NCBI GenBank assembly: GCA_027064425.1
Contig: JAMOPO010000052.1
Location: 32,001-96,000, forward strand
Source of the DNA: Methanobacteriota archaeon
Lineage (GTDB): Archaea; JAADCQ01; Methanopyri; Methanopyrales; Methanopyraceae
Direction: 5' to 3'
Length of the DNA stretch: 64,000 bases
The notes beneath the pieces were generated by a model. The model did not search any database. It was not told where the DNA came from and saw nothing but the letters and a program-made list of their open reading frames with translations. Positions 30,965-40,010 of the stretch are shown piece after piece (positions within the stretch are counted from its first letter, which is position 1; each line of letters opens with the position of its first letter). The position numbers and the translations under genes are program-made.

Positions 30965-32080
30965 CTAAAGCCTGGTCCGGATGACCGTGTGGCCCCAGAT
31001 CGCGGCGGACAGGATCGTGAACGTGGCCAGCGCGAACGAGTTCATCGCCCGTGAGAACAGGAAGGCACCGATCAGCGACTGGACGGCGAAGGCGATCAGG
31101 CACCCGAACAGCATAGCCTCCCGGGCCACGATCCGGGAGGAGAACTCACACTGATGCATCTTGATGTATCGGGCCAGGCACCGGGAGCCCACGTACAGCG
31201 TGAGCCCCACCCACAGCGACAGCAGGAGCGAGCCGATGTACCCGAAGTCGAAGGCCCAGACGAAGACGCCGGGGAGCATGTAGTCGAGCAGGTCCTTTCG
31301 CGTGACCAGCGCGCCGTGCAGGGTGGGCACGTCCAGGTTGAACATGACCAGGTATCCCACGGGCAGCGTCACGAACCCGTCACCGAACCCGCGCCAGTGG
31401 TAACCTGCCGGGAGCGGCTTCGTCGAGTGCCCGATCAGGTGCGCGTTCTTCAGGATGAGGTCGAGGCCCGGGACCGTGTACTCGGCGAAGCGCTGGACTC
31501 GGACGACCGGGCTGAGCACGGGCTTGTTCAGCGCGCGGGCCAGTGCCTCCATCATCGCCACGAACCCGACCGCGATCACGGACACCGCGGCGATGGTCCG
31601 ACGGCTCATCCTAGCCGCGCGCATGGCGAGCGCTCCAACCCGCGTCTCCCCCTCCAGGTACCTGGCGATCAGGTACTCCGTGCCGACCCAGCAGAGGAAC
31701 CAGGAGAGCAGGTAGTCACGATGCATTAGCCCGCCAACCATGCCGACGTAAAGCCAGAGCAGGTTCAGCACCGGCCGGGTCCGGCGCGCGGCCGAGATGC
31801 CCCGACTCTCTAGGATTCCCACGAGGTACCGCGCCGAGGCCCAGGCGGCCAGCGTCAGCGGTCCGAAAGGATGGGTGAACTCGTGCCGAGGCATGGGCAG
31901 GAACAGGGACAGCACGTCCACGGAGAACAGCAGGGCCATGACCACCAGGGTGAAGATTGACAGCGAGAGCACGCGCTGGATGGTCACCGTGGAGTAGGCC
32001 AGCGTGAGTGGGATCAGAGTGTGGGTCATGATGACGAAGTCCAGCAGCGCCTCTCCGGTGTTGTGCGGTACCAGGTACAA
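30965..32080 (-). CDS. Polytopic membrane protein, Wzy/O-antigen-ligase(GT-C)-like topology
   Basis: About 9-10 hydrophobic segments with a large loop before DFGYIG; last gene of the pseudomurein operon. CDS is solid, function is inferred. Confidence 0.72.
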   Translation of the reverse strand: MYLVPHNTGEALLDFVIMTHTLIPLTLAYSTVTIQRVLSLSIFTLVVMALLFSVDVLSLFLPMPRHEFTHPFGPLTLAAWASARYLVGILESRGISAARRTRPVLNLLWLYVGMVGGLMHRDYLLSWFLCWVGTEYLIARYLEGETRVGALAMRAARMSRRTIAAVSVIAVGFVAMMEALARALNKPVLSPVVRVQRFAEYTVPGLDLILKNAHLIGHSTKPLPAGYHWRGFGDGFVTLPVGYLVMFNLDVPTLHGALVTRKDLLDYMLPGVFVWAFDFGYIGSLLLSLWVGLTLYVGSRCLARYIKMHQCEFSSRIVAREAMLFGCLIAFAVQSLIGAFLFSRAMNSFALATFTILSAAIWGHTVIRTRL

Positions 32081-32081
32081 G

Positions 32082-33344
32082 TTACCACCCTCTGGTCCGC
32101 CGGTGTAGCAGCTCTCTGACGCATCCGAGCACGATCAGGGTGACGCCCAGGGCCGATCCCAGCAGGCCGAGCGCGTGCAGCACCTCGGACGGAACGGGGG
32201 TCTTCAGCGGGCGCTTCTTGTACCCGGGAGGCAGCGGCCGCATGTACACCGTGACCAGGTTAGCCTTCGGTTCCACCTTGATGTCGCTGGGCAGCACGTA
32301 GTCGTAGCCCAGCAGGGTGTTGTTGTCGATCGCGTTGTCAATGGCCCGGGCGATGTGCGTTGGGTCCCGCTTCCCGCGCTGGATCAGCGACTGCACGATC
32401 TCCACGATGGTCGCCTTGTCGTAGGCGCTCCTGACCCCGTACACGCGCACCACCGGCTGGTTCTTACGCACGGTGATCAGGTCGCGCGCCACCTGCCAGG
32501 CGTACTCCGTCTTCAAGCTGGAACCGCACACCGGGCACCGGGTGTACCTGCCCGCCGCCGGGTACGGCGCGCTCCAGCCGCACTTGGGGCACACCTTCCG
32601 GTAAGGAGCGTCCAGCGGAAACCCGCGCTCGTTGAGCCGAGCGGGCACGAACGTGTCGCCGGTGGAGAGTCCCGCGGTGATGTTCACGGCGCCGCCACCG
32701 TACTTCTCGCCCGACTTCCTGGCCACGTAACCCATGACCCGGGTGAGCACCTCCGTCGCGGGCAGCCCGTCCCGGATCATTCGGCCCGCCATGATCGCCG
32801 CCTCGACGCGAACCTTGGTCGCCGTACCGTACAGCGGGTTACCCGGCGTGTTACGCAGGTGGATGACCGCGCACTTGACGTTGGGCGGGATCTTGACGAT
32901 GTTCGGGCCCGCGCTGCTGTGGTACTGCTTGATGATGATCTTGTTCCCCTTCACGATGACCACGGTGATGTCGTAGCTACCGCCCACCACGATGCCCCGA
33001 CGCGGGCCGCCCACCAGCAGTCGGTCCGTAGGCGACTTCTCGACACCGGCCCGGACGGCCTCCTCCAGCGGCATGCCCAGCTCCAGGCGACGGATGCACG
33101 CCAGGATCGCCTCCAGCCGCGCGGTACCCTTACCTAGACCACCCGCCAGCACGGCCACGTGCAGCTTTTTGGAGACCAGGAACGTGGACTGGAACATGTT
33201 GGGAGCGAACGACATCGAGCCGGCGGCTGCGCCGTTCGGGTCCTTGCCCGTGGGATCCGTGATGACGATCATGTTGAACGTGGCCGAGGAGGCCGAGGGG
33301 AGGAGCAGCAGGGCCAGCGCGAGTATCGCCGCCCACCGGATGAT
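32082..33344 (-). CDS. Secreted, C-terminally anchored Ntn-hydrolase-like protein with Zn ribbon
   Basis: In-frame signal peptide IRWAAILALALLLLPSASSA precedes TFNMIVITDPTG; CPKC..CPVC; C-terminal TM; probable ATC start at 33344 (first ATG 33272). Confidence 0.75.
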   Translation of the reverse strand: MIRWAAILALALLLLPSASSATFNMIVITDPTGKDPNGAAAGSMSFAPNMFQSTFLVSKKLHVAVLAGGLGKGTARLEAILACIRRLELGMPLEEAVRAGVEKSPTDRLLVGGPRRGIVVGGSYDITVVIVKGNKIIIKQYHSSAGPNIVKIPPNVKCAVIHLRNTPGNPLYGTATKVRVEAAIMAGRMIRDGLPATEVLTRVMGYVARKSGEKYGGGAVNITAGLSTGDTFVPARLNERGFPLDAPYRKVCPKCGWSAPYPAAGRYTRCPVCGSSLKTEYAWQVARDLITVRKNQPVVRVYGVRSAYDKATIVEIVQSLIQRGKRDPTHIARAIDNAIDNNTLLGYDYVLPSDIKVEPKANLVTVYMRPLPPGYKKRPLKTPVPSEVLHALGLLGSALGVTLIVLGCVRELLHRRTRGW

Positions 33345-33358
33345 CTTCCGACGCCCCC

Positions 33359-33775
33359 TTACCTCGGCAGCCCGTAGTCCTCCGTCACCCTCACGACCAC
33401 GACGCCTGACCGCTTGATCGTGATCTGGACCGACTTGACGGGCTTAATTTTGGTACCGGGGATAACGCTGCGCATGGCGTAGATGCGCGCCCTCCTGACC
33501 GCCTCCTGCAGCGGGATTCGCTTGCCGTCCGGGGTGATCAGCACCCCGTTCTTGATCGTGGCACCCGGCCTCAGTCCCGCCGCCATCACGTTGCTCCTGA
33601 CCACCTCCTCAGGCAGGAAGTCGCACCCTACCACGTCCACACCCACGATCTTGACCCCTCCCTGCTTGGGCAGCGGGCGGCTCGCCCAGGCCGTGTACTC
33701 GGCCAGCCTCCCCAGGGTGAGCAGCAGCGCTCCCAGCAGCATGATGGCGAGGTTACGCCTCGACACCCGGATCAT
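33359..33775 (-). CDS. Bitopic FtsQ-type POTRA-domain protein
   Basis: N-terminal TM, then KIVGVDVVGCDFLPEEVV..VKSVQITIKRSGVVVVRVTE; ATG 33775. Confidence 0.7.
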   Translation of the reverse strand: MIRVSRRNLAIMLLGALLLTLGRLAEYTAWASRPLPKQGGVKIVGVDVVGCDFLPEEVVRSNVMAAGLRPGATIKNGVLITPDGKRIPLQEAVRRARIYAMRSVIPGTKIKPVKSVQITIKRSGVVVVRVTEDYGLPR

Positions 33776-35231
33776 CCTCGCCCACCACCCCCATCTCCCG
33801 GAGGATCTTCCGGGCCGGCTCCATGCCCTGCGCCCCGCCCAGCAGCACCACCGTGTCCTCATCACTGAGCTCCAGCGCGCGCTCCAGCGCGTCCTCAAGC
33901 CGGTTGAAGTGCTCCCACTCCACCCCACCGCGCCTCAGCTCCTCCAGGAAGACCTCCCGCTCCTCGTCCCGAACGACGTTCGCCTCGTCCACCAGACCCT
34001 CCGAGTCCGTGGCCAAAATCCGCACCTCCACGCCCTCCCGCTCCAGCTCTCGAGCCCCCTTCACCAACGCCCTCGCGATCTCCCGGTTGATCTCCGTCCC
34101 GCGCGACCCCCGGATGGCGAAGACGATCACGGCCCGATCCTTGCCCAGCCTCCGCAGGGCCCGCACCGTCGCGAGGACACCGTCCGGATTGTGGCAGAAG
34201 TCGTCCACGATCAGCGGATCCTCCGACAGCCGCTCGAACCGGCGCTTGAGCGGGCGGTACGTGCGCAGCCCCTCCGCGATGTCCTCAGCGTCCACGCCCA
34301 GGGCGTGAGCGGCCGCGGTCGCGGCGAGCGCGTTGTACAGGAAATGGTCCACCGGGAGCGGGAACTCGCGGACGGGGATCAACGGTTCCCCTTCCAGCAG
34401 AATCCACTCCTCCCCGTCCACCTCACCGATCCGGGCGACGCCCTCCTCCCACCCGTACCACACTACCTCCGGCGCGAGCGACTCCATCTCCGCCACGCGC
34501 TCGTCGTCCGCGTTCAGCACCGCGACCCCGTCCTCCAGCGCCCTGACAACCCCCGAAACCGCCTCCGCCATCTCGTCCAGCGAGGAGACCAGGTTCGTGT
34601 GATCCACTCCCACGTTCGTTACCACGGCAACCTCACAGTCCAGGGCACGAGCCATCCGGTACGCGTGGTCCTCCATAACCCGGCCGGTCGGCAGGCCCTG
34701 AACCTCCGAGACCTCTACGCACAGGAAATCCTCCGGCCGGGCCTCCCGGATCTCCATAGCCACGACGGGGTCAATCAGCGTGTTCTTCTCGGACCGGAAG
34801 TCAGTGTTGCAGTACACGTCCCGGCCCGCCGACCTCAGGATGTGAGCGAGCAGGTGGTTGGTGGTGGACTTGCCGTTGGTGCCCGTGACGCACGCGGTGA
34901 CGGCGTCGGGCGCGTACTCCCTTTTCGCCAGCTTCAGCGCGTACTCGTTGGCCCGGTCCACCTCCGTCAGGATGAGGGGGAGACCGCGGCGCTCGCACTC
35001 TTCCTCCAGCCTGCCCCGCGGCTCCTCCGTGATCAGGCACGCCACACCGCGCTCATCCGCCAGCTCGGCCCCACGCTCATCGAGCCACCACCTGACCACC
35101 ACGTCCCCCTCGCTCGCCCGCCCGAGCGTGGAGAACCAGCCCCGAACTCTTCCGTCGGGGTCCCCGACGACCAGCTCCCCGTCCACCCTTTCAGCCAGCT
35201 CGCCCACGGTGGTTCTCAGCAGCGCGATCAC
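33753..35231 (-). CDS. Mur-ligase family peptide ligase (pseudomurein)
   Basis: VTGTNGKSTT, VVTNVGVDH, VLNADD, YNALAA, RRFE, DDFCHNPDG; GTG 35231. Confidence 0.92.
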   Translation of the reverse strand: MIALLRTTVGELAERVDGELVVGDPDGRVRGWFSTLGRASEGDVVVRWWLDERGAELADERGVACLITEEPRGRLEEECERRGLPLILTEVDRANEYALKLAKREYAPDAVTACVTGTNGKSTTNHLLAHILRSAGRDVYCNTDFRSEKNTLIDPVVAMEIREARPEDFLCVEVSEVQGLPTGRVMEDHAYRMARALDCEVAVVTNVGVDHTNLVSSLDEMAEAVSGVVRALEDGVAVLNADDERVAEMESLAPEVVWYGWEEGVARIGEVDGEEWILLEGEPLIPVREFPLPVDHFLYNALAATAAAHALGVDAEDIAEGLRTYRPLKRRFERLSEDPLIVDDFCHNPDGVLATVRALRRLGKDRAVIVFAIRGSRGTEINREIARALVKGARELEREGVEVRILATDSEGLVDEANVVRDEEREVFLEELRRGGVEWEHFNRLEDALERALELSDEDTVVLLGGAQGMEPARKILREMGVVGEDDPGVEA

Positions 35232-36304
35232 CCCGCGAGCCAGAGGGCGATGCCTGCGAGGAAGGCGCCGGCCATCCAGTGCAGGGCCACCACGATCGGC
35301 TCGGGCAAATCGTACTTGTACTGGAGGTGATGATGCAGGGGCTCGACCGCGAGCCGGATCACGCCGGCGCGGTGGAGCAGGCTGATGATCGTGGACCCCA
35401 CGGGCACGCCGAGGGCGATGACGGCGGGCACCTCGATCTTGTAGTACAGCGCGCCGGCGGCGTACGCGGCCCCCAGGAAGCAGCTCCCGGTGTCGCCCAT
35501 GAAGATCTTGGCCGGGTACCTGTTGTGGAACAGGAAGCCGAGCGAGGCTCCGGCGAGCGAGGCGAAGAACGCGGCGCCCGGGAGCTGATTGTGGGCCAGG
35601 CACACGCCCGAGCACGCCAGAGAGGCCAGAAACAGGAGGCCCGCGGCCAGCCCGTCCATGCCGTCGATAAGGTTCACCGCGTTGGTCGCGCCCACGACGC
35701 CGAAGAGAGCCAGCGGGTAGAACAGCCAGGAAAGGTCGATCGTCCCTAAGTGCGGGAACCACAGCCAGGTGGCGGGCACGATAGGGAGAACGAAGAGCGC
35801 GGCTCCGGCCTGAAGCAGCAGCTTCTCCCGCTCGCTCAGCTCCTTCTTGATCGGCACCTCGCCCACGATCTCGATCTTGTCCGGCTCCTCCCTGAGCAGG
35901 CGCTTCAGGTCCCGCTTGGCCTTCTTCGTCGCCACCCGGGCCTCCTCACCGGGCTGGAGCACGAGCCGGCCGATCCTGATCGGCTCGTTGGAGACGTTCT
36001 TAACCACCTTCTGGTACTCCTCCACCTGCAGCCCGAGCAGGTCGTCCACCACTCCCAGCACCATCATGGGGAGTGCTGAGGCCAGGGGTGGCAGGGCCTG
36101 GATCGACACGAGGAGCGGTCCGGCGGCCGTGCCCAGGACGATCCCGAAACCGCCCATGATCGGTGTACCGGCCTTGTGAGAGTGCTCCGTGACGATCGGC
36201 CTGTCCACCACCCGGGCCTCCTTCATGTACCGCCGGAGGAGCCTGACGACAGCCCACGACGTCATCGTTGAGACGGCGAACGTCTCAACGATCAACCCGG
36301 TCAT
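35228..36304 (-). CDS. MraY-like polyprenyl-phosphate transferase
   Basis: HKAGTPIMGG, GVVDD, NAVNLIDGMDGL, IFMGDTGS, EPLHHH. Confidence 0.92.
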   Translation of the reverse strand: MTGLIVETFAVSTMTSWAVVRLLRRYMKEARVVDRPIVTEHSHKAGTPIMGGFGIVLGTAAGPLLVSIQALPPLASALPMMVLGVVDDLLGLQVEEYQKVVKNVSNEPIRIGRLVLQPGEEARVATKKAKRDLKRLLREEPDKIEIVGEVPIKKELSEREKLLLQAGAALFVLPIVPATWLWFPHLGTIDLSWLFYPLALFGVVGATNAVNLIDGMDGLAAGLLFLASLACSGVCLAHNQLPGAAFFASLAGASLGFLFHNRYPAKIFMGDTGSCFLGAAYAAGALYYKIEVPAVIALGVPVGSTIISLLHRAGVIRLAVEPLHHHLQYKYDLPEPIVVALHWMAGAFLAGIALWLAG

Positions 36305-36310
36305 CCCCGC

Positions 36311-37450
36311 TCAGAGGAACCTGCTAGCCTCCCTGAGCCGCAGCTCGAACTCCTTCTCGGCCAGCTTCAGGTTGGCTCCTGCCGCCTTGAACGCCGACCG
36401 CAGCCTCTCGAACGCTTCTTTAAACGATTCCCCTCTCACCGCGATCCGGCCGGCCACGTCCACTCTACCGTAGTACTCGTAAAACACGTGGTACACTCCT
36501 CCGTCGAACATCTCCCGCAGGGGCTCCCGCCGGGAGGCGTTCCACACCGGGCACTCGATCGCGTGCCAGACCTTCCTGACCCGGGGCGGCCTCCAGCGAT
36601 CCACGACCATGTCTACGAGCTCCCGCAGCGGCCAGATCCCGGAGCACCCGGAGGTCATGTACCGCGTACCGCTGGGCCGCGGGTTGAACTCCAGGAACCA
36701 GAACTCGTCCTCCCGGACCACCACGTCGAAGTCGATCGTGCCCTCCAGCCCCAGCCGCTTGACGAGCTTGACCGCGCAGCGCTTGATGCCACGCTCCACC
36801 GACTCGTCCAGCGGGGCGGGGGCCATCCTCATTCGATCGATGGGGTGGTCGTCGTCCAGCGTCGACCCCTTGAACACGGGAACGAGCGGGACGACCTCCC
36901 CGTTCCAGGATAGGACCTCGATCGACACCTCCGCCCCCTCGATGAACTCCTCCACCAGCCGCCTACCGTGAACCCTGGGCGCCGACCGCTCGTAAACGTC
37001 CACGTTAATACCGGCCTGCGACCGCGGGTCCTTCACGACGAGGGGCGGGCGCATCCGGGGCCGGTCGTCCTCCACCACCTCCCACTCGGGCGTCGGGATG
37101 TTCAGCTCCTCGAACGCCCGCTTCGCCTCGATCTTGTTCACACCGGTCTGAACGCCTCTCGGCCCCGAGGCCGCGACGGGGATTCCCTCCTCCTCCAACA
37201 TCTCCTTCATCTCCGCCACCTCGGGGAGCGGATCGTCCACGCCGATGAGCGGGACCACCCCGTCCACGCCCCGCTCGAGCGCGATCCGCGCCGGGTGAGC
37301 CATCCCGCGGGGCACGAAGTGAACCTCGTCCGCCAGGTCCCAGTCCCTGCTCTCCGGGTTCGACTCGGTCAGGATCCGGTAGATCCCGGTGGAGGCCGCG
37401 TACTCCGCCACGTCCCGGAACAGCCGGGCGCCGACGAACAGGACCTTCAA
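36311..37450 (-). CDS. ATP-grasp ligase (pseudomurein cluster)
   Basis: NKIEAK..IPTP, VEEFIEGAEVS, FLEFNPRPSG. Confidence 0.88.
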   Translation of the reverse strand: MKVLFVGARLFRDVAEYAASTGIYRILTESNPESRDWDLADEVHFVPRGMAHPARIALERGVDGVVPLIGVDDPLPEVAEMKEMLEEEGIPVAASGPRGVQTGVNKIEAKRAFEELNIPTPEWEVVEDDRPRMRPPLVVKDPRSQAGINVDVYERSAPRVHGRRLVEEFIEGAEVSIEVLSWNGEVVPLVPVFKGSTLDDDHPIDRMRMAPAPLDESVERGIKRCAVKLVKRLGLEGTIDFDVVVREDEFWFLEFNPRPSGTRYMTSGCSGIWPLRELVDMVVDRWRPPRVRKVWHAIECPVWNASRREPLREMFDGGVYHVFYEYYGRVDVAGRIAVRGESFKEAFERLRSAFKAAGANLKLAEKEFELRLREASRFL

Positions 37451-38979
37451 CCCTCCTCCCCCAGCGTCTCTTCCAGCTCCCTCAGAATGTCCTCCTTGAA
37501 CTTCAGCGCCGCCTCGCCGAACAGCACGATCACCTCACACTCCGACTCCAGCGCCGACCTGAGACCGTCCAGAACCTGCTCCCTGGAGGCCCCCAGCGTC
37601 CCCCGCTTCTCGAAGCGCTCCGAGGCGCTCTCGGCCGCCACCACGTTGTCCGCCTCAACGTCATCGAGCACGCGGTAGCACGCGTACGAGGCCGCGATGA
37701 CCCGGTCCGAGAGCTTCGCCGCCCGCTCGAGGATCTCCCGGTCGCCCTCCGGCCCCAGCTCCGAGGCCACGGCGATGACCGCGCAGACGCGCCGGTCCTT
37801 GAACAGCTGCCGCAGGCAGCGCAGGGTCGCCTCCACTCCCGCCGGGTTGTGGCCGTAGTCGATGATCACCACGCGCTCGCCGTCGTCCCACACGGTCTCC
37901 AGCCGCCCTTCCACCCCCTCGAACGAGGAGAGCGCGTGCGCCACCTCCCCCGGGTCCAGGTCCAGGAACTCGATGCAGACGGCCGCGGCCGCCACGGCGT
38001 TGTACACGTTGTGAAGGCCCATCACGGGCAGGCTGACCTCGAACTCGCCCCCCGGGCAGGCCAGCGTGAACCCGTCCAGGGAGACGTCGGTGGCCAGGTA
38101 GTCCGGCGTCGGCGTCCTCAACCCGCACTCGCACCGGAAGTCGCCCACCCACGGGAGGATCTCCTCCACCTCCGCCCGCTCGCCGCACCAGCACTCCTTC
38201 TCCACGGTACCCACGGGCTCCGCCTCCACCCCGAAGTAGACGATGTCGCCGTCGAACCCGACCACGTCCGGCGCGCCCACGACCAGCGGGTCCTGAGCGT
38301 TCAGGACGGCCAGCTCCACCGAGTCGGGCTCAAGCAGCTCGATCTCGCACCGCGCGTACGTCTTGAAGTCGCCCGCCTTGTTCAGGTGATCGGGCGTGAT
38401 GTTCGTCAGGCAGACGCACTCCACCTCGGACCACTCGGCCGCCTCGAGGATCTCCCCGCGCTCACCGAACGTCGCGATCTCCAGCACGCTCACGTCGCCC
38501 GGCAGCCGAGCCTGCAGCGGAGGCAGGTACCCGACGTTCCCCTGCATGCCCGGCAGTCCGGGGCCCCGGGCCTCCAGCCCCAGCTCCCGGCACACGTGCC
38601 GGATCATCGCCACGGTCGTCGTCTTCCCGTTCGTGCCGCCCACGCCCACCACCGGCCGCGTGGGTGGGATCTTCTTGAGCACGTCCTCCACCTCACAGAC
38701 CCGGCACCCGTGCCGCTCGGCCATCCGGTACGGGGGAGCGCCCTCGTCCAGGCTGGGCGGGAGGACCACCGCGTCGGCCCGCTGGAACAGCTCCGGCGGG
38801 TGCCCGCCCAGAACGATCTCGATGTTCGCGTAGTCCAGCAGGGGCTCCAGCAGCTCGCACTCCTCCTCGTCCTTCACGTCCGAGGCGATCACGTGGTAGT
38901 CCCGCTCCGCGAGCACCCGGGCGACCAGGTTGCACACGGGCCCGCACACGCCGATGACCAGCACGGTGAACCCCTTCAC
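37447..38979 (-). CDS. Mur-ligase family peptide ligase with Cys4 insert
   Basis: GGTNGKTTT, LTNITPDHL, HNVYNAVAA, GVEGRLE, DYGHNPAG; CWCG..CECG. Confidence 0.92.
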   Translation of the reverse strand: MKGFTVLVIGVCGPVCNLVARVLAERDYHVIASDVKDEEECELLEPLLDYANIEIVLGGHPPELFQRADAVVLPPSLDEGAPPYRMAERHGCRVCEVEDVLKKIPPTRPVVGVGGTNGKTTTVAMIRHVCRELGLEARGPGLPGMQGNVGYLPPLQARLPGDVSVLEIATFGERGEILEAAEWSEVECVCLTNITPDHLNKAGDFKTYARCEIELLEPDSVELAVLNAQDPLVVGAPDVVGFDGDIVYFGVEAEPVGTVEKECWCGERAEVEEILPWVGDFRCECGLRTPTPDYLATDVSLDGFTLACPGGEFEVSLPVMGLHNVYNAVAAAAVCIEFLDLDPGEVAHALSSFEGVEGRLETVWDDGERVVIIDYGHNPAGVEATLRCLRQLFKDRRVCAVIAVASELGPEGDREILERAAKLSDRVIAASYACYRVLDDVEADNVVAAESASERFEKRGTLGASREQVLDGLRSALESECEVIVLFGEAALKFKEDILRELEETLGEEG

Positions 38980-38990
38980 GCGTATCCCCC

Positions 38991-40010
38991 TCAGACGCGC
39001 GTCCCCGGGATCTCCCGACCGTACTCGCGCAGCAGCTCGCGCATCAGCGAGCGCACGTCCTCCAGGAGCCTCCTGGCCGCCTCCTCATCCCTCTCGACGG
39101 CTAGGCGGGGTAGGACGTCGTACCCTAAATCGTCGACTCGGTCGTCGATCTCGGAGTACTCGGACAGGACCGCGTGCAACTGCGCGAGCCGTTCCGTCCG
39201 CTCAACCCGGTTCAGCGTCCCGTGGACGTACGATCTCAGCGCGCTCTCAAGGTACATGAGCAGCCGGTACGTGAGGTCGCGGACGACGTCGCCCTCGTCC
39301 CGCGGTCCCTCCGGCACCCCGCCCCGGAACACCCGGCTCAGCTCCAGCCCCAGCCTCTCCTCCACCTCCCCCGCGTCCCACCTCGGGGTCTCCGTCTCGA
39401 CCAGGTACTCCAGGCACTCCCGTGGAGACGCCACCCGCTCCACCATGAGCGAGCAGGCCCGGCCCGTGAGCGGGTTGTATCCCACCCGCTCGATGAACCG
39501 GTGCACTCCGTAGGGCCGGATGGGGCACGTGTAGTCCTCGTCGAACCATCCGCATTCCGAGACGATCCGCCGCACGTCCTCCCACGTCCACCGGCGCAGC
39601 GCCGGGTACCGGACCATCGTCACGCCGGGGGGGTATGGGTGGGTCACCCGCCGCCCGTACTTGCCTCGCAGCTCGTGGCCCGTGAGGACCGTGAGCAGCC
39701 CCAGCTGCTTGGCGCGTAGGCAGGCGGCGGTCAGGACCGTCCTCGCGCACTTGGTGCAGATGGGTAGACCGCGCCGGAGGGCTCGGCGGAACCACTCTCG
39801 AAGCCGAACGCGGACGACCTCGTGGCGGAGGCCCAGCCGCTCCGCGCACCTCCTGGCGTTCTCCAGGCACACCTCGTCCAGGAACTCGTGAACGACCGTG
39901 ACCGCCGCCTCCAGACGCCATCGTTCGGAGGCGTGGAGGGCGGTCGCCACGCTGTCCCGGCCGCCGGAGAGCGCCACGCAGGCGGGGTTGCTGGGGCTAG
40001 TCGTGCGCAT
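38991..40010 (-). CDS. PP-loop (adenine nucleotide alpha-hydrolase) protein
   Basis: ALSGGRDS, ICTKC, LTGHE, YTCP. Confidence 0.82.
   Translation of the reverse strand: MRTTSPSNPACVALSGGRDSVATALHASERWRLEAAVTVVHEFLDEVCLENARRCAERLGLRHEVVRVRLREWFRRALRRGLPICTKCARTVLTAACLRAKQLGLLTVLTGHELRGKYGRRVTHPYPPGVTMVRYPALRRWTWEDVRRIVSECGWFDEDYTCPIRPYGVHRFIERVGYNPLTGRACSLMVERVASPRECLEYLVETETPRWDAGEVEERLGLELSRVFRGGVPEGPRDEGDVVRDLTYRLLMYLESALRSYVHGTLNRVERTERLAQLHAVLSEYSEIDDRVDDLGYDVLPRLAVERDEEAARRLLEDVRSLMRELLREYGREIPGTRV

Follow-up and report, generated by a model that had tools for sequence, protein, structure and literature searches.

The window analysed here comprises 64,000 nucleotides of contig JAMOPO010000052.1 (positions 32,001 to 96,000 of the forward strand, assembly GCA_027064425.1), from an archaeon of the Methanopyraceae, and carries on its minus strand a pseudomurein gene cluster that includes the gene studied in this work, at window positions 32082-33344. 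The product of this gene is the Methanopyrus orthologue of the Mfer764 family, for which we describe a predicted N-terminal nucleophile (Ntn) fold, an invariant threonine (Thr1) in the nucleophile position and a possible role in the building of the cell wall. Its reading frame encodes a leader ending in SASSA↓TFNM (the arrow marks the proposed cleavage site), a CPKC...CPVC ribbon, a C-terminal membrane helix and a basic tail; leader, SASSA↓T site, ribbon and C-terminal anchor all lie on this strand, at the place given by a first-pass annotation made from the sequence alone. Translation of 32082-33404 (minus strand) reads ...RRKIIRWAAILALALLLLPSASSA followed directly by TFNMIVITDPTGKDPNGAAAGSMSFAPNMF... 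across the junction of leader and mature N-terminus, and the same frame is also read as RRKIIRWAAILALALLLLPSASSA joined to TFNMIVITDPTGKDPNGAAAGSMSFAPNMFQSTF over the proposed cleavage site. The ribbon motifs (...KVCPKCGWS...RCPVCGSS...) lie downstream, the C-terminal end reads ...LHALGLLGSALGVTLIVLGCVRELLHRRTRGW before the stop codon, and the frame ending at 32082 stays open far upstream. Residues are numbered along the mature chain, with the Thr after SASSA as residue 1, and the parts of the gene are as follows.

33282..33344, minus strand: leader or signal peptide, 21 codons from ATC, the first table-11 start (IIRWAAILALALLLLPSASSA)
33279..33281, minus strand: ACG codon of Thr1, candidate N-terminal nucleophile and invariant +1 Thr, in the register of the model
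32607..33281, minus strand: predicted Ntn-type catalytic core, residues 1-225, modelled as 4 strands, 2 helices, 6 strands and 2 helices
32514..32606, minus strand: zinc-ribbon insertion, residues 226-256, with ligands C231, C234, C249 and C252
32244..32513, minus strand: small alpha/beta region, residues 257-346, its elements taken from the predicted model
32190..32243, minus strand: Pro/Lys-rich linker, residues 347-364, without regular structure and with the lowest block (60) of the predicted local distance difference test (pLDDT)
32085..32189, minus strand: C-terminal membrane helix (core about 368-388; helix 365-398 in the model) and basic tail RELLHRRTRGW
32082-32084, minus strand: stop codon

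The assignment to the Mfer764 family is based on a nearly full-length match to profile NF053642 (E 5.8e-164, 545.6 bits, profile positions 1-391 of 393) and on the position of the gene. The score lies 14 bits below the curated equivalog cut-off of 560; Methanopyrus copies range from 530 to 571 bits, with two of the five above this cut-off, and the Methanopyrus branch is divergent, not a different family. On the same strand, the cluster runs in the order pMurC, ATP-grasp ligase, MraY, pMurE, Mfer763 and the Mfer764 gene, and the succession of the last three is also found in one Methanobacteria genome. The locus corresponds to pseudomurein gene cluster 2 in the available part of Subedi et al. 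2021 (PMC10117817) and to cluster A in that of Lupo et al. 2025 (PMC11915815), and the gene lies directly downstream of pMurE and Mfer763 within it, a position that the former source states as a rule. The same text lists Mfer764 as a 'conserved protein' of gene cluster 2 and describes Mfer763 and Mfer764 as conserved transmembrane proteins with no homology to annotated proteins, while Lupo et al. present OG0001472 as a hypothetical protein 'devoid of known domains' (PMC11915815).

Furthermore, the distribution of the family follows that of pseudomurein. The NF053642 profile was found in 150 of 151 genomes of the Methanobacteria phylum, mostly as a single match per genome, in five of six genomes of the Methanopyrus phylum and in none of 14 control genomes; a search with the protein itself gave no match in 14 other archaeal families sampled. 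The gene is single-copy in the window's own genome and the family is restricted, in the genomes sampled, to Methanobacteriales and Methanopyrales, which supports its confinement to pseudomurein archaea. The link to pseudomurein drawn in the first-pass annotation is upheld both by this confinement and by the place of the gene within the cluster.

The 120 best of 605 database homologues were examined for a leader, with the cleavage site placed by pattern. A leader could be placed in 118 of them, the other two starting at an internal Met. Overall identity to the query is no higher than 44-50% in these homologues, the Methanopyrus ones excepted. Thr occupies position +1 in all 118, the -1 residue is Ala in 117 (Pro once) and the -3 residue is Val in 77, Ser in 28 and Ala in 13, a pattern compatible with signal peptidase I at this predicted site. 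Leaders have a median length of 23 residues and a hydrophobic core; ahead of this core, a net charge of at least +1 is found in 90 of the 93 leaders that are at least 15 residues long. In 25 sequences the leader has just 6-10 residues, and these short leaders, as well as the internal-Met starts, look like gene calls beginning too late. In an alignment of 121 rows, every one of the 119 that extend this far has T1 and N3 (the other two start at an internal Met), and another 23 positions, all polar or glycine, do not vary in any of the 121 rows, namely, T8, D9, N16, G17, S22, S24, N28, T33, S37, G47, G48, R55, R87, H141, N144, N148, R158, R170, D171, T176, E192, N200, and D209. The check named in the first-pass annotation, whether position +1 is Thr, Ser or Cys in homologues, comes out in its favour by both counts, with Thr in every homologue that has a leader (118/118; 119/119 alignment rows). 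The residue after Thr1 was also noted to be Cys in 97 of the 118 (homologues P0006-P0121), mostly from Methanobacteria, and Phe, Met, Leu or Thr in the others, Methanopyrus included; a thiol beside the proposed nucleophile may be relevant to chemistry or redox control.

The mature chain was modelled from Thr1 with a 61-sequence alignment, giving a mean pLDDT of 87.5 and a predicted template modelling score (pTM) of 0.74. The predicted core is composed of strands 2-7, 18-24, 34-37 and 42-47, helices 52-67 and 72-82, six strands between residues 87 and 142, and helices 154-170 and 175-189, arranged in the model as a four-layer alpha-beta-beta-alpha sandwich with the Ntn strand order. Strand 2-7 begins next to residue 1, and a Thr is found as mature residue 1 at the start of this first strand, the cleavage site being predicted. 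A Foldseek search of the PDB returned a circularly permuted Taspase-1 (E 1e-7), Anbu (2.9e-4), HslV (3.9e-4) and a PP2C phosphatase (7.9e-4). A second aligner, independent of Foldseek and run over 48,161 representative chains, scored NAAA at 12.9, proteasome beta at 12.8, acid ceramidase at 12.2 and connectase at 10.5, with penicillin, cephalosporin and bile-salt acylases lower among the matches listed. The aligned model range begins at residue 1 in 40 of the 50 listed matches of one structural comparison and in all 50 of another, and model residue 1 meets chain residue 1 in HslV, proteasome beta, BPH, connectase and acylase beta chains, all numbered from their mature end. By secondary-structure order only, the invariant pairs or residues N16/G17, T33, G47/G48, H141/N144 and R170/D171 appear to fall at loops bearing catalytic residues in proteasome-type enzymes. 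The top feature match of the mature chain in the ESM Atlas was a proteasome cluster with a score of 0.76, which lies below the level that chance reaches and serves as a lead only.

According to this model, the fold is Ntn-type and Thr1 occupies the nucleophile position, as in solved Ntn enzymes, and the family constitutes a new family within a known superfamily. The Ntn fold and the likeness to DUF1028 proposed by the first-pass annotation are both supported by the model, DUF1028 being among the solved structures that it matches. Gamma-glutamyl transpeptidase, which had been offered as an analogue, is an Ntn enzyme with a Thr nucleophile that catalyses acyl transfer to amines outside the cytoplasm. 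This enzyme (PF01019) is two-subunit and self-cleaved, whereas Mfer764 has no large subunit ahead of its Thr, and it is absent among the 50 matches listed by each of three fold searches; it is not the closest relative, the best structural matches being Taspase-1/type-2 asparaginase, DUF1028 and HslV/proteasome. Each of these differs in turn from Mfer764. The DUF1028 structure (PDB 2imh, SPO2555) shares 9% identity with the protein, which has no Pfam DUF1028 match; that family is itself uncharacterised, and its solved chain has neither the zinc ribbon nor the membrane anchor. The match in the Taspase-1/type-2 asparaginase family (PF01112) is an engineered circular permutant, the natural Taspase-1-family members being self-cutting alpha-beta precursors, whereas the Thr of Mfer764 is preceded only by a leader of about 21 amino acids. 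HslV, proteasome beta, Anbu and BPH are cytoplasmic and ring-forming, unlike the Mfer764 protein, which is predicted to be membrane-tethered and outside. Connectase (MJ0548 family) matches the model less well than DUF1028 or HslV do; it works in the cytoplasm on the protein MtrA, and its Thr-1 is freed by loss of the Met. The family would be set apart by an activation that proceeds through loss of the leader and not through self-cleavage of a precursor, by the zinc-ribbon insertion and by the C-terminal anchor.

The zinc ribbon gives only weak Pfam matches (DZR E 0.009; 9 of 23 members). Over the 121 alignment rows, the ligands at 231 and 249 are always Cys, position 234 has Cys in 104 rows and Asp in 17, and position 252 has Cys in 83 and Asp in 38, so that the ligand combinations are CCCC (83), CCCD (21) and CDCD (17), with no other residue; judging from the alignment, this behaviour fits a metal site. 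A disulfide in place of a metal was considered; the sole substitution seen at the two variable ligand positions, to Asp, makes it unlikely. Residues 257-346 are predicted to form strands 257-260, 277-281, 334-337 and 342-346 and helices 261-269, 286-301 and 307-319, and the first of these strands may complete the modelled sandwich, since the structural alignments span the model from residue 1 to 261-278. Residues 365-398 form a single long helix in the model, and the last 12 residues carry a net charge of +2 to +6 in all 121 rows. With such a basic tail, the positive-inside rule would place the tail in the cytoplasm and therefore the bulk of the protein outside. Leader, helix and basic tail agree and support the prediction of a type-I protein with a C-terminal anchor that lies on the outer side of the membrane, in keeping with the location outside the cell that had been put forward before. 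With respect to fold and topology, we thus hold it to be very probable that the protein is an Ntn-fold ectoenzyme with Thr1 as its first residue.

In Ntn enzymes, the side chain of residue 1 is the nucleophile and its free amino group acts as the base; either water or an amine can then resolve the acyl-enzyme. For pseudomurein, the legend of Fig. S6 in Leahy 2010 (PMC2812497) indicates that cross-linking requires removal of the terminal residue and a Glu-to-Lys link, and that there are no genes resembling penicillin-binding proteins (PBPs) for transglycosylation or transpeptidation. In the mechanism we propose, the leader would be removed by signal peptidase or by self-cleavage to leave Thr as residue 1, whose free amino group and hydroxyl would form the catalytic pair. 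Within the exported stem peptide of pseudomurein, the hydroxyl would attack a peptide carbonyl and set the terminal residue free, and the amino group of a neighbouring stem peptide would then resolve the acyl-enzyme to yield the cross-link. The enzyme would probably work next to the WaaL/SEDS-fold protein encoded downstream, which would polymerise the glycan. A precedent is provided by connectase, described in the available part of its report as a proteasome-like Thr-1 transpeptidase of methanogens (PMC7980362). We consider it probable that the Mfer764 protein acts on the pseudomurein peptide, and plausible, if short of probable, that it is the cross-linking transpeptidase. The tethered location outside, the operon shared with stem-peptide ligases and MraY, and the WaaL/SEDS neighbour suit cross-linking, and a hydrolase that trims or remodels the wall would suit them nearly as well; the protein is put forward as a testable candidate for a wall cross-linking or trimming enzyme.

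Several observations weigh against this proposal, at the levels of fold, export and function. Regarding the fold, no sequence-level relation to any Ntn family was found with Pfam, a profile search of PDB sequences or hhalign. Pfam searches up to E 10 gave weak zinc-ribbon matches only, with no proteasome/HslV (PF00227), DUF1028 (PF06267) or Asparaginase_2 (PF01112) either among the matches of the first member or among the 25 families listed of 39; the PDB profile search returned nothing but one chance match, to GH95 at E 0.89; and hhalign probabilities were 0.2-0.6% against 19 archaeal proteasome beta subunits and 0.5% against one type-2 asparaginase. Because of this lack of sequence-level similarity to Ntn families, the protein is placed at the superfamily (fold) level only. 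Regarding export, SignalP5 results in Table S1 of Lupo 2025 (PMC11915815) give a Sec/SPI signal for two of four family members, including the Methanopyrus one, and one remaining transmembrane segment in each of the four listed, and the remaining two members are scored 'OTHER'; the main-text table of the same paper lists the group as 'Other'. The activity, the cleavage at A↓T and the Thr N-terminus are themselves predictions. Regarding function, most Ntn enzymes are hydrolases, the best structural matches included (Taspase-1, HslV), the same genome encodes three transglutaminase-core genes and one sortase as other candidate cross-linkers, and Lupo et al. name transglutaminases as the best cross-linking candidates (PMC11915815). 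Finally, the WaaL/SEDS-fold gene adjoins Mfer764 only in Methanopyrus, and in the one Methanobacteria genome compared, its two copies lie more than 160 kb from Mfer764.

The main alternative is a hydrolase with the same fold and location, in which water would resolve the Thr1 acyl-enzyme and the protein would serve as a carboxypeptidase trimming the last residue of the stem peptide, as an endo- or isopeptidase opening the sacculus during growth and division, or as an amidase in the recycling of wall fragments. Its nearest structural relatives (Taspase-1, HslV, proteasome, NAAA, acid ceramidase, and penicillin and bile-salt acylases) are hydrolytic, type-2 asparaginase relatives cleave side-chain amide bonds, which we count in favour of hydrolysis, and the genome holds other cross-linker candidates. 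Against this, the gene is near-universal, mostly with one match per genome, and is fixed in a biosynthetic operon right after pMurE and Mfer763, a pattern more typical of a synthetic step than of autolysins. The acyl-enzyme is common to hydrolysis and aminolysis, and the two readings part only at the last step. Weighing both sides, we regard a hydrolase as rather unlikely.

A protein substrate appears improbable. Under this explanation, the targets would be surface proteins, to be processed or ligated, for instance when the S-layer is matured or attached to pseudomurein; likewise, Taspase-1 cuts and connectase joins specific proteins. However, the gene is linked to stem-peptide ligases and MraY and not to surface-protein genes, the genome has a sortase for protein anchoring, and no candidate protein substrate was identified. 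We give similarly little credence to a protein that is not Ntn in function, either a non-catalytic scaffold keeping the sandwich or a metal-dependent phosphatase of the PP2C kind, whose substrate would be a lipid-linked or phosphorylated intermediate. The nine PP2C matches listed by the second aligner begin only at model residue 11-16, with scores lower than those of DUF1028, Taspase-1 and HslV, a phosphatase would leave the invariance of the post-cleavage Thr (118/118) unexplained, and a scaffold would have no need to keep some 25 polar or glycine positions invariant.

The start codon of the window's own copy raises a further point against export. At 33344 stands an ATC, which is the earliest start codon of table 11 past the upstream in-frame stop, and the codon list of the frame contains no ATG, GTG or TTG ahead of the leader in this genome. 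The first such codon is ATG 33272, within the mature chain (MIVITD), where the list of open reading frames (ORFs) begins a product of 396 amino acids. Two close relatives (about 90% identity) have a GTG start six codons ahead of a conserved RWW, and two M. kandleri-like genomes have a GTG start at the position of Trp4 in the window's leader. The position of the Mfer764 start codon is hence not conserved within Methanopyrus (window 33320-33365, minus strand), and the window has neither GTG; the first GTG of the relatives reads GTC in the window and is out of frame because the spacer is one base shorter. The possibility raised in the first-pass annotation, that Met 33272 is the true N-terminus, is not fully set aside for this copy, since the leader has no canonical start ahead of it here, although the relatives do have an upstream GTG start. 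An assembly error was considered as the cause of the missing start and rejected, which makes its absence a real feature to be reckoned with: contigs of four public runs from two studies match 33304-33550 without indels and differ only at 33380 and 33492, and their agreement indicates that the sequence is real, although one of the runs may be the source sample. Either translation begins at a non-canonical codon (ATC, ATC, ATA or CTG in the leader), or this copy must be one that is not exported. The second option, a tail-anchored cytoplasmic protein of this lineage that would start at ATG 33272, lack Thr1-Phe2-Asn3 and be inactive or repurposed, would agree with the missing upstream starts, with the GTC in another frame, with the identical, indel-free frame of the four runs and with gene callers that begin related copies at the same Met (P0002, P0004), but we rate it as very improbable because the open frame still encodes the hydrophobic core and the SASSA↓T site in the only copy of an otherwise strongly conserved gene, the start position already varies between Methanopyrus lineages, and table 11 permits ATC, ATA and CTG, all found in the leader.

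The preferred reading, an exported Thr1 enzyme working on the stem peptide, draws the neighbouring genes into the picture. These are as follows.

30965..32080, minus strand: polytopic membrane protein of 371 amino acids with a WaaL/SEDS-type fold in the predicted model, downstream
33359..33775, minus strand: Mfer763-family upstream neighbour, 138 amino acids, NF053641 match from ORF Met52
33753..38979, minus strand: rest of the pseudomurein cluster, upstream (pMurE, MraY, Ddl_archaea, pMurC), made up of the next four
33753-35762, minus strand: pMurE ORF, profile E 2.4e-170, match from ORF residue 189
35228-36304, minus strand: archaeal MraY, MraY_archaea E 4.5e-131
36311-37450, minus strand: ATP-grasp 'Ddl_archaea', E 6.1e-97
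37447-38979, minus strand: pMurC, E 1.2e-181

The gene at 30965-32080 starts 2 bases past the Mfer764 stop codon. No Pfam, NCBIfam or PDB sequence match was obtained for its product, which has 202 homologues, the source-named ones coming from Methanopyrus, Methanobacteria and two metagenome bins labelled Methanomicrobiales; a few are labelled 'oligosaccharide repeat unit polymerase' in UniRef. The predicted model (pLDDT 85.8, pTM 0.85) has full-length matches to WaaL, RodA and FtsW only, and these proteins account for the six top Foldseek matches (probability 0.98-1.00, E 0.009-0.1), after which the probability drops below 0.25. On the strength of this model, the protein is a candidate pseudomurein glycan polymerase or ligase. 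Its gene matches the same six of 21 related genomes as Mfer764 and adjoins it in all five Methanopyrus genomes having either gene; it is also present in 40 of 41 Methanobacteria genomes, with at least two matches in 24 of the 41. Lupo et al. had already remarked, for Methanopyrus sp. KOL6, that the two genes adjoin, without assigning a function (OG0000796, PMC11915815). In one genome of the same genus (G004, 94% complete), neither gene was found, and both absences can be explained by one missing contig because the two genes adjoin in the genus.

Together, the WaaL/SEDS-fold protein and Mfer764 suggest a module of a polymerase plus a cross-linker. The analogy to RodA-PBP2 and FtsW-FtsI is functional only: in both cases, a single-pass extracytoplasmic acyl-transfer enzyme would stand beside a RodA/FtsW/WaaL-fold protein, and both kinds of pair occur within a cluster of Mur ligases and MraY. 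The class B PBP uses the Ser of a penicilloyl-serine transferase and an N-terminal anchor, whereas Mfer764 would use Thr1 of an Ntn sandwich and has a C-terminal anchor, and it adjoins the WaaL/SEDS-fold gene in Methanopyrus only. A machine equivalent to that of SEDS proteins and class B PBPs, built of unrelated or only fold-related parts, with a WaaL/RodA-fold polymerase, the Thr1 transpeptidase Mfer764 and Mfer763 (possibly POTRA-like) as an FtsQ-like accessory, is conceivable, and we consider it doubtful.

Mfer763 itself matches NF053641 (E 1e-45) over ORF residues 52-186. Counted from the Met at 33775, it has 138 amino acids, in which a hydrophobic segment at the N-terminus, either leader or anchor, comes before an ectodomain of some 105 residues, and SignalP5 gives a signal peptide in all five members tabulated (Lupo 2025 Table S1, PMC11915815). 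The leads towards a POTRA domain are weak (2 of 11 members, best E 0.087; Atlas scores 0.79 and 0.76). The listed ORF (33359-33928) is 51 codons too long, as the family profile starts at Met52. Mfer763-like modules were also seen to recur up to 25 times in one protein of 2611 amino acids (P0248).

With respect to earlier work, the Mfer764 family and its genomic position are already in print, and the Ntn fold, Thr1 and the WaaL/SEDS pairing are added here. Among open-access papers and preprints, the Ntn/Thr1 reading, the fold and the pairing were not found, and the literature on a pseudomurein transpeptidase did not name the family; literature linking pseudomurein to SEDS, RodA, Wzy or O-antigen ligase gave nothing relevant among the matches listed. 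The available part of a catalogue of new proteasome homologues (PMC8665760) contains no mention of Methanobacteri, Methanopyr, signal peptide or transmembrane. In the portions available of the literature on the subject, transglutaminases are the guess for the pseudomurein cross-linker and the Mfer764 family is treated as function-unknown (PMC10117817, PMC11915815, PMC2812497). The enzymes that polymerise and cross-link pseudomurein outside the cell are still to be identified, and a conserved, cluster-encoded, outward-facing candidate narrows the question to a definite protein and to one residue, T1, that can be put to the test. Should Mfer764 be the cross-linker, there would have been two origins of wall cross-linking, each with its own catalytic fold, and the protein would offer a selective target against methanogens of the gut and rumen, on which penicillins have no effect. 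Should it be a hydrolase instead, the cell would encode a wall-remodelling enzyme of its own; PeiW, PeiP and PeiR, which cleave pseudomurein, are, in the part of the literature available, of viral or prophage origin.

Two further observations concern the upstream part of the cluster. The longest pMurE ORF (33753-35762, 669 amino acids) overlaps the MraY gene by about 530 bases, and the real start of pMurE is probably near 35200, because the profile match begins only at ORF residue 189. Between pMurC and the glutamyl-tRNA synthetase gene lies an ORF of 339 amino acids (38991-40010, minus strand), whose only matches are weak ones to PP-loop ATPases (QueC E 7.7e-4, LarE 1.3e-5), far below the cut-offs; the cluster may have one more, uncharacterised member here.

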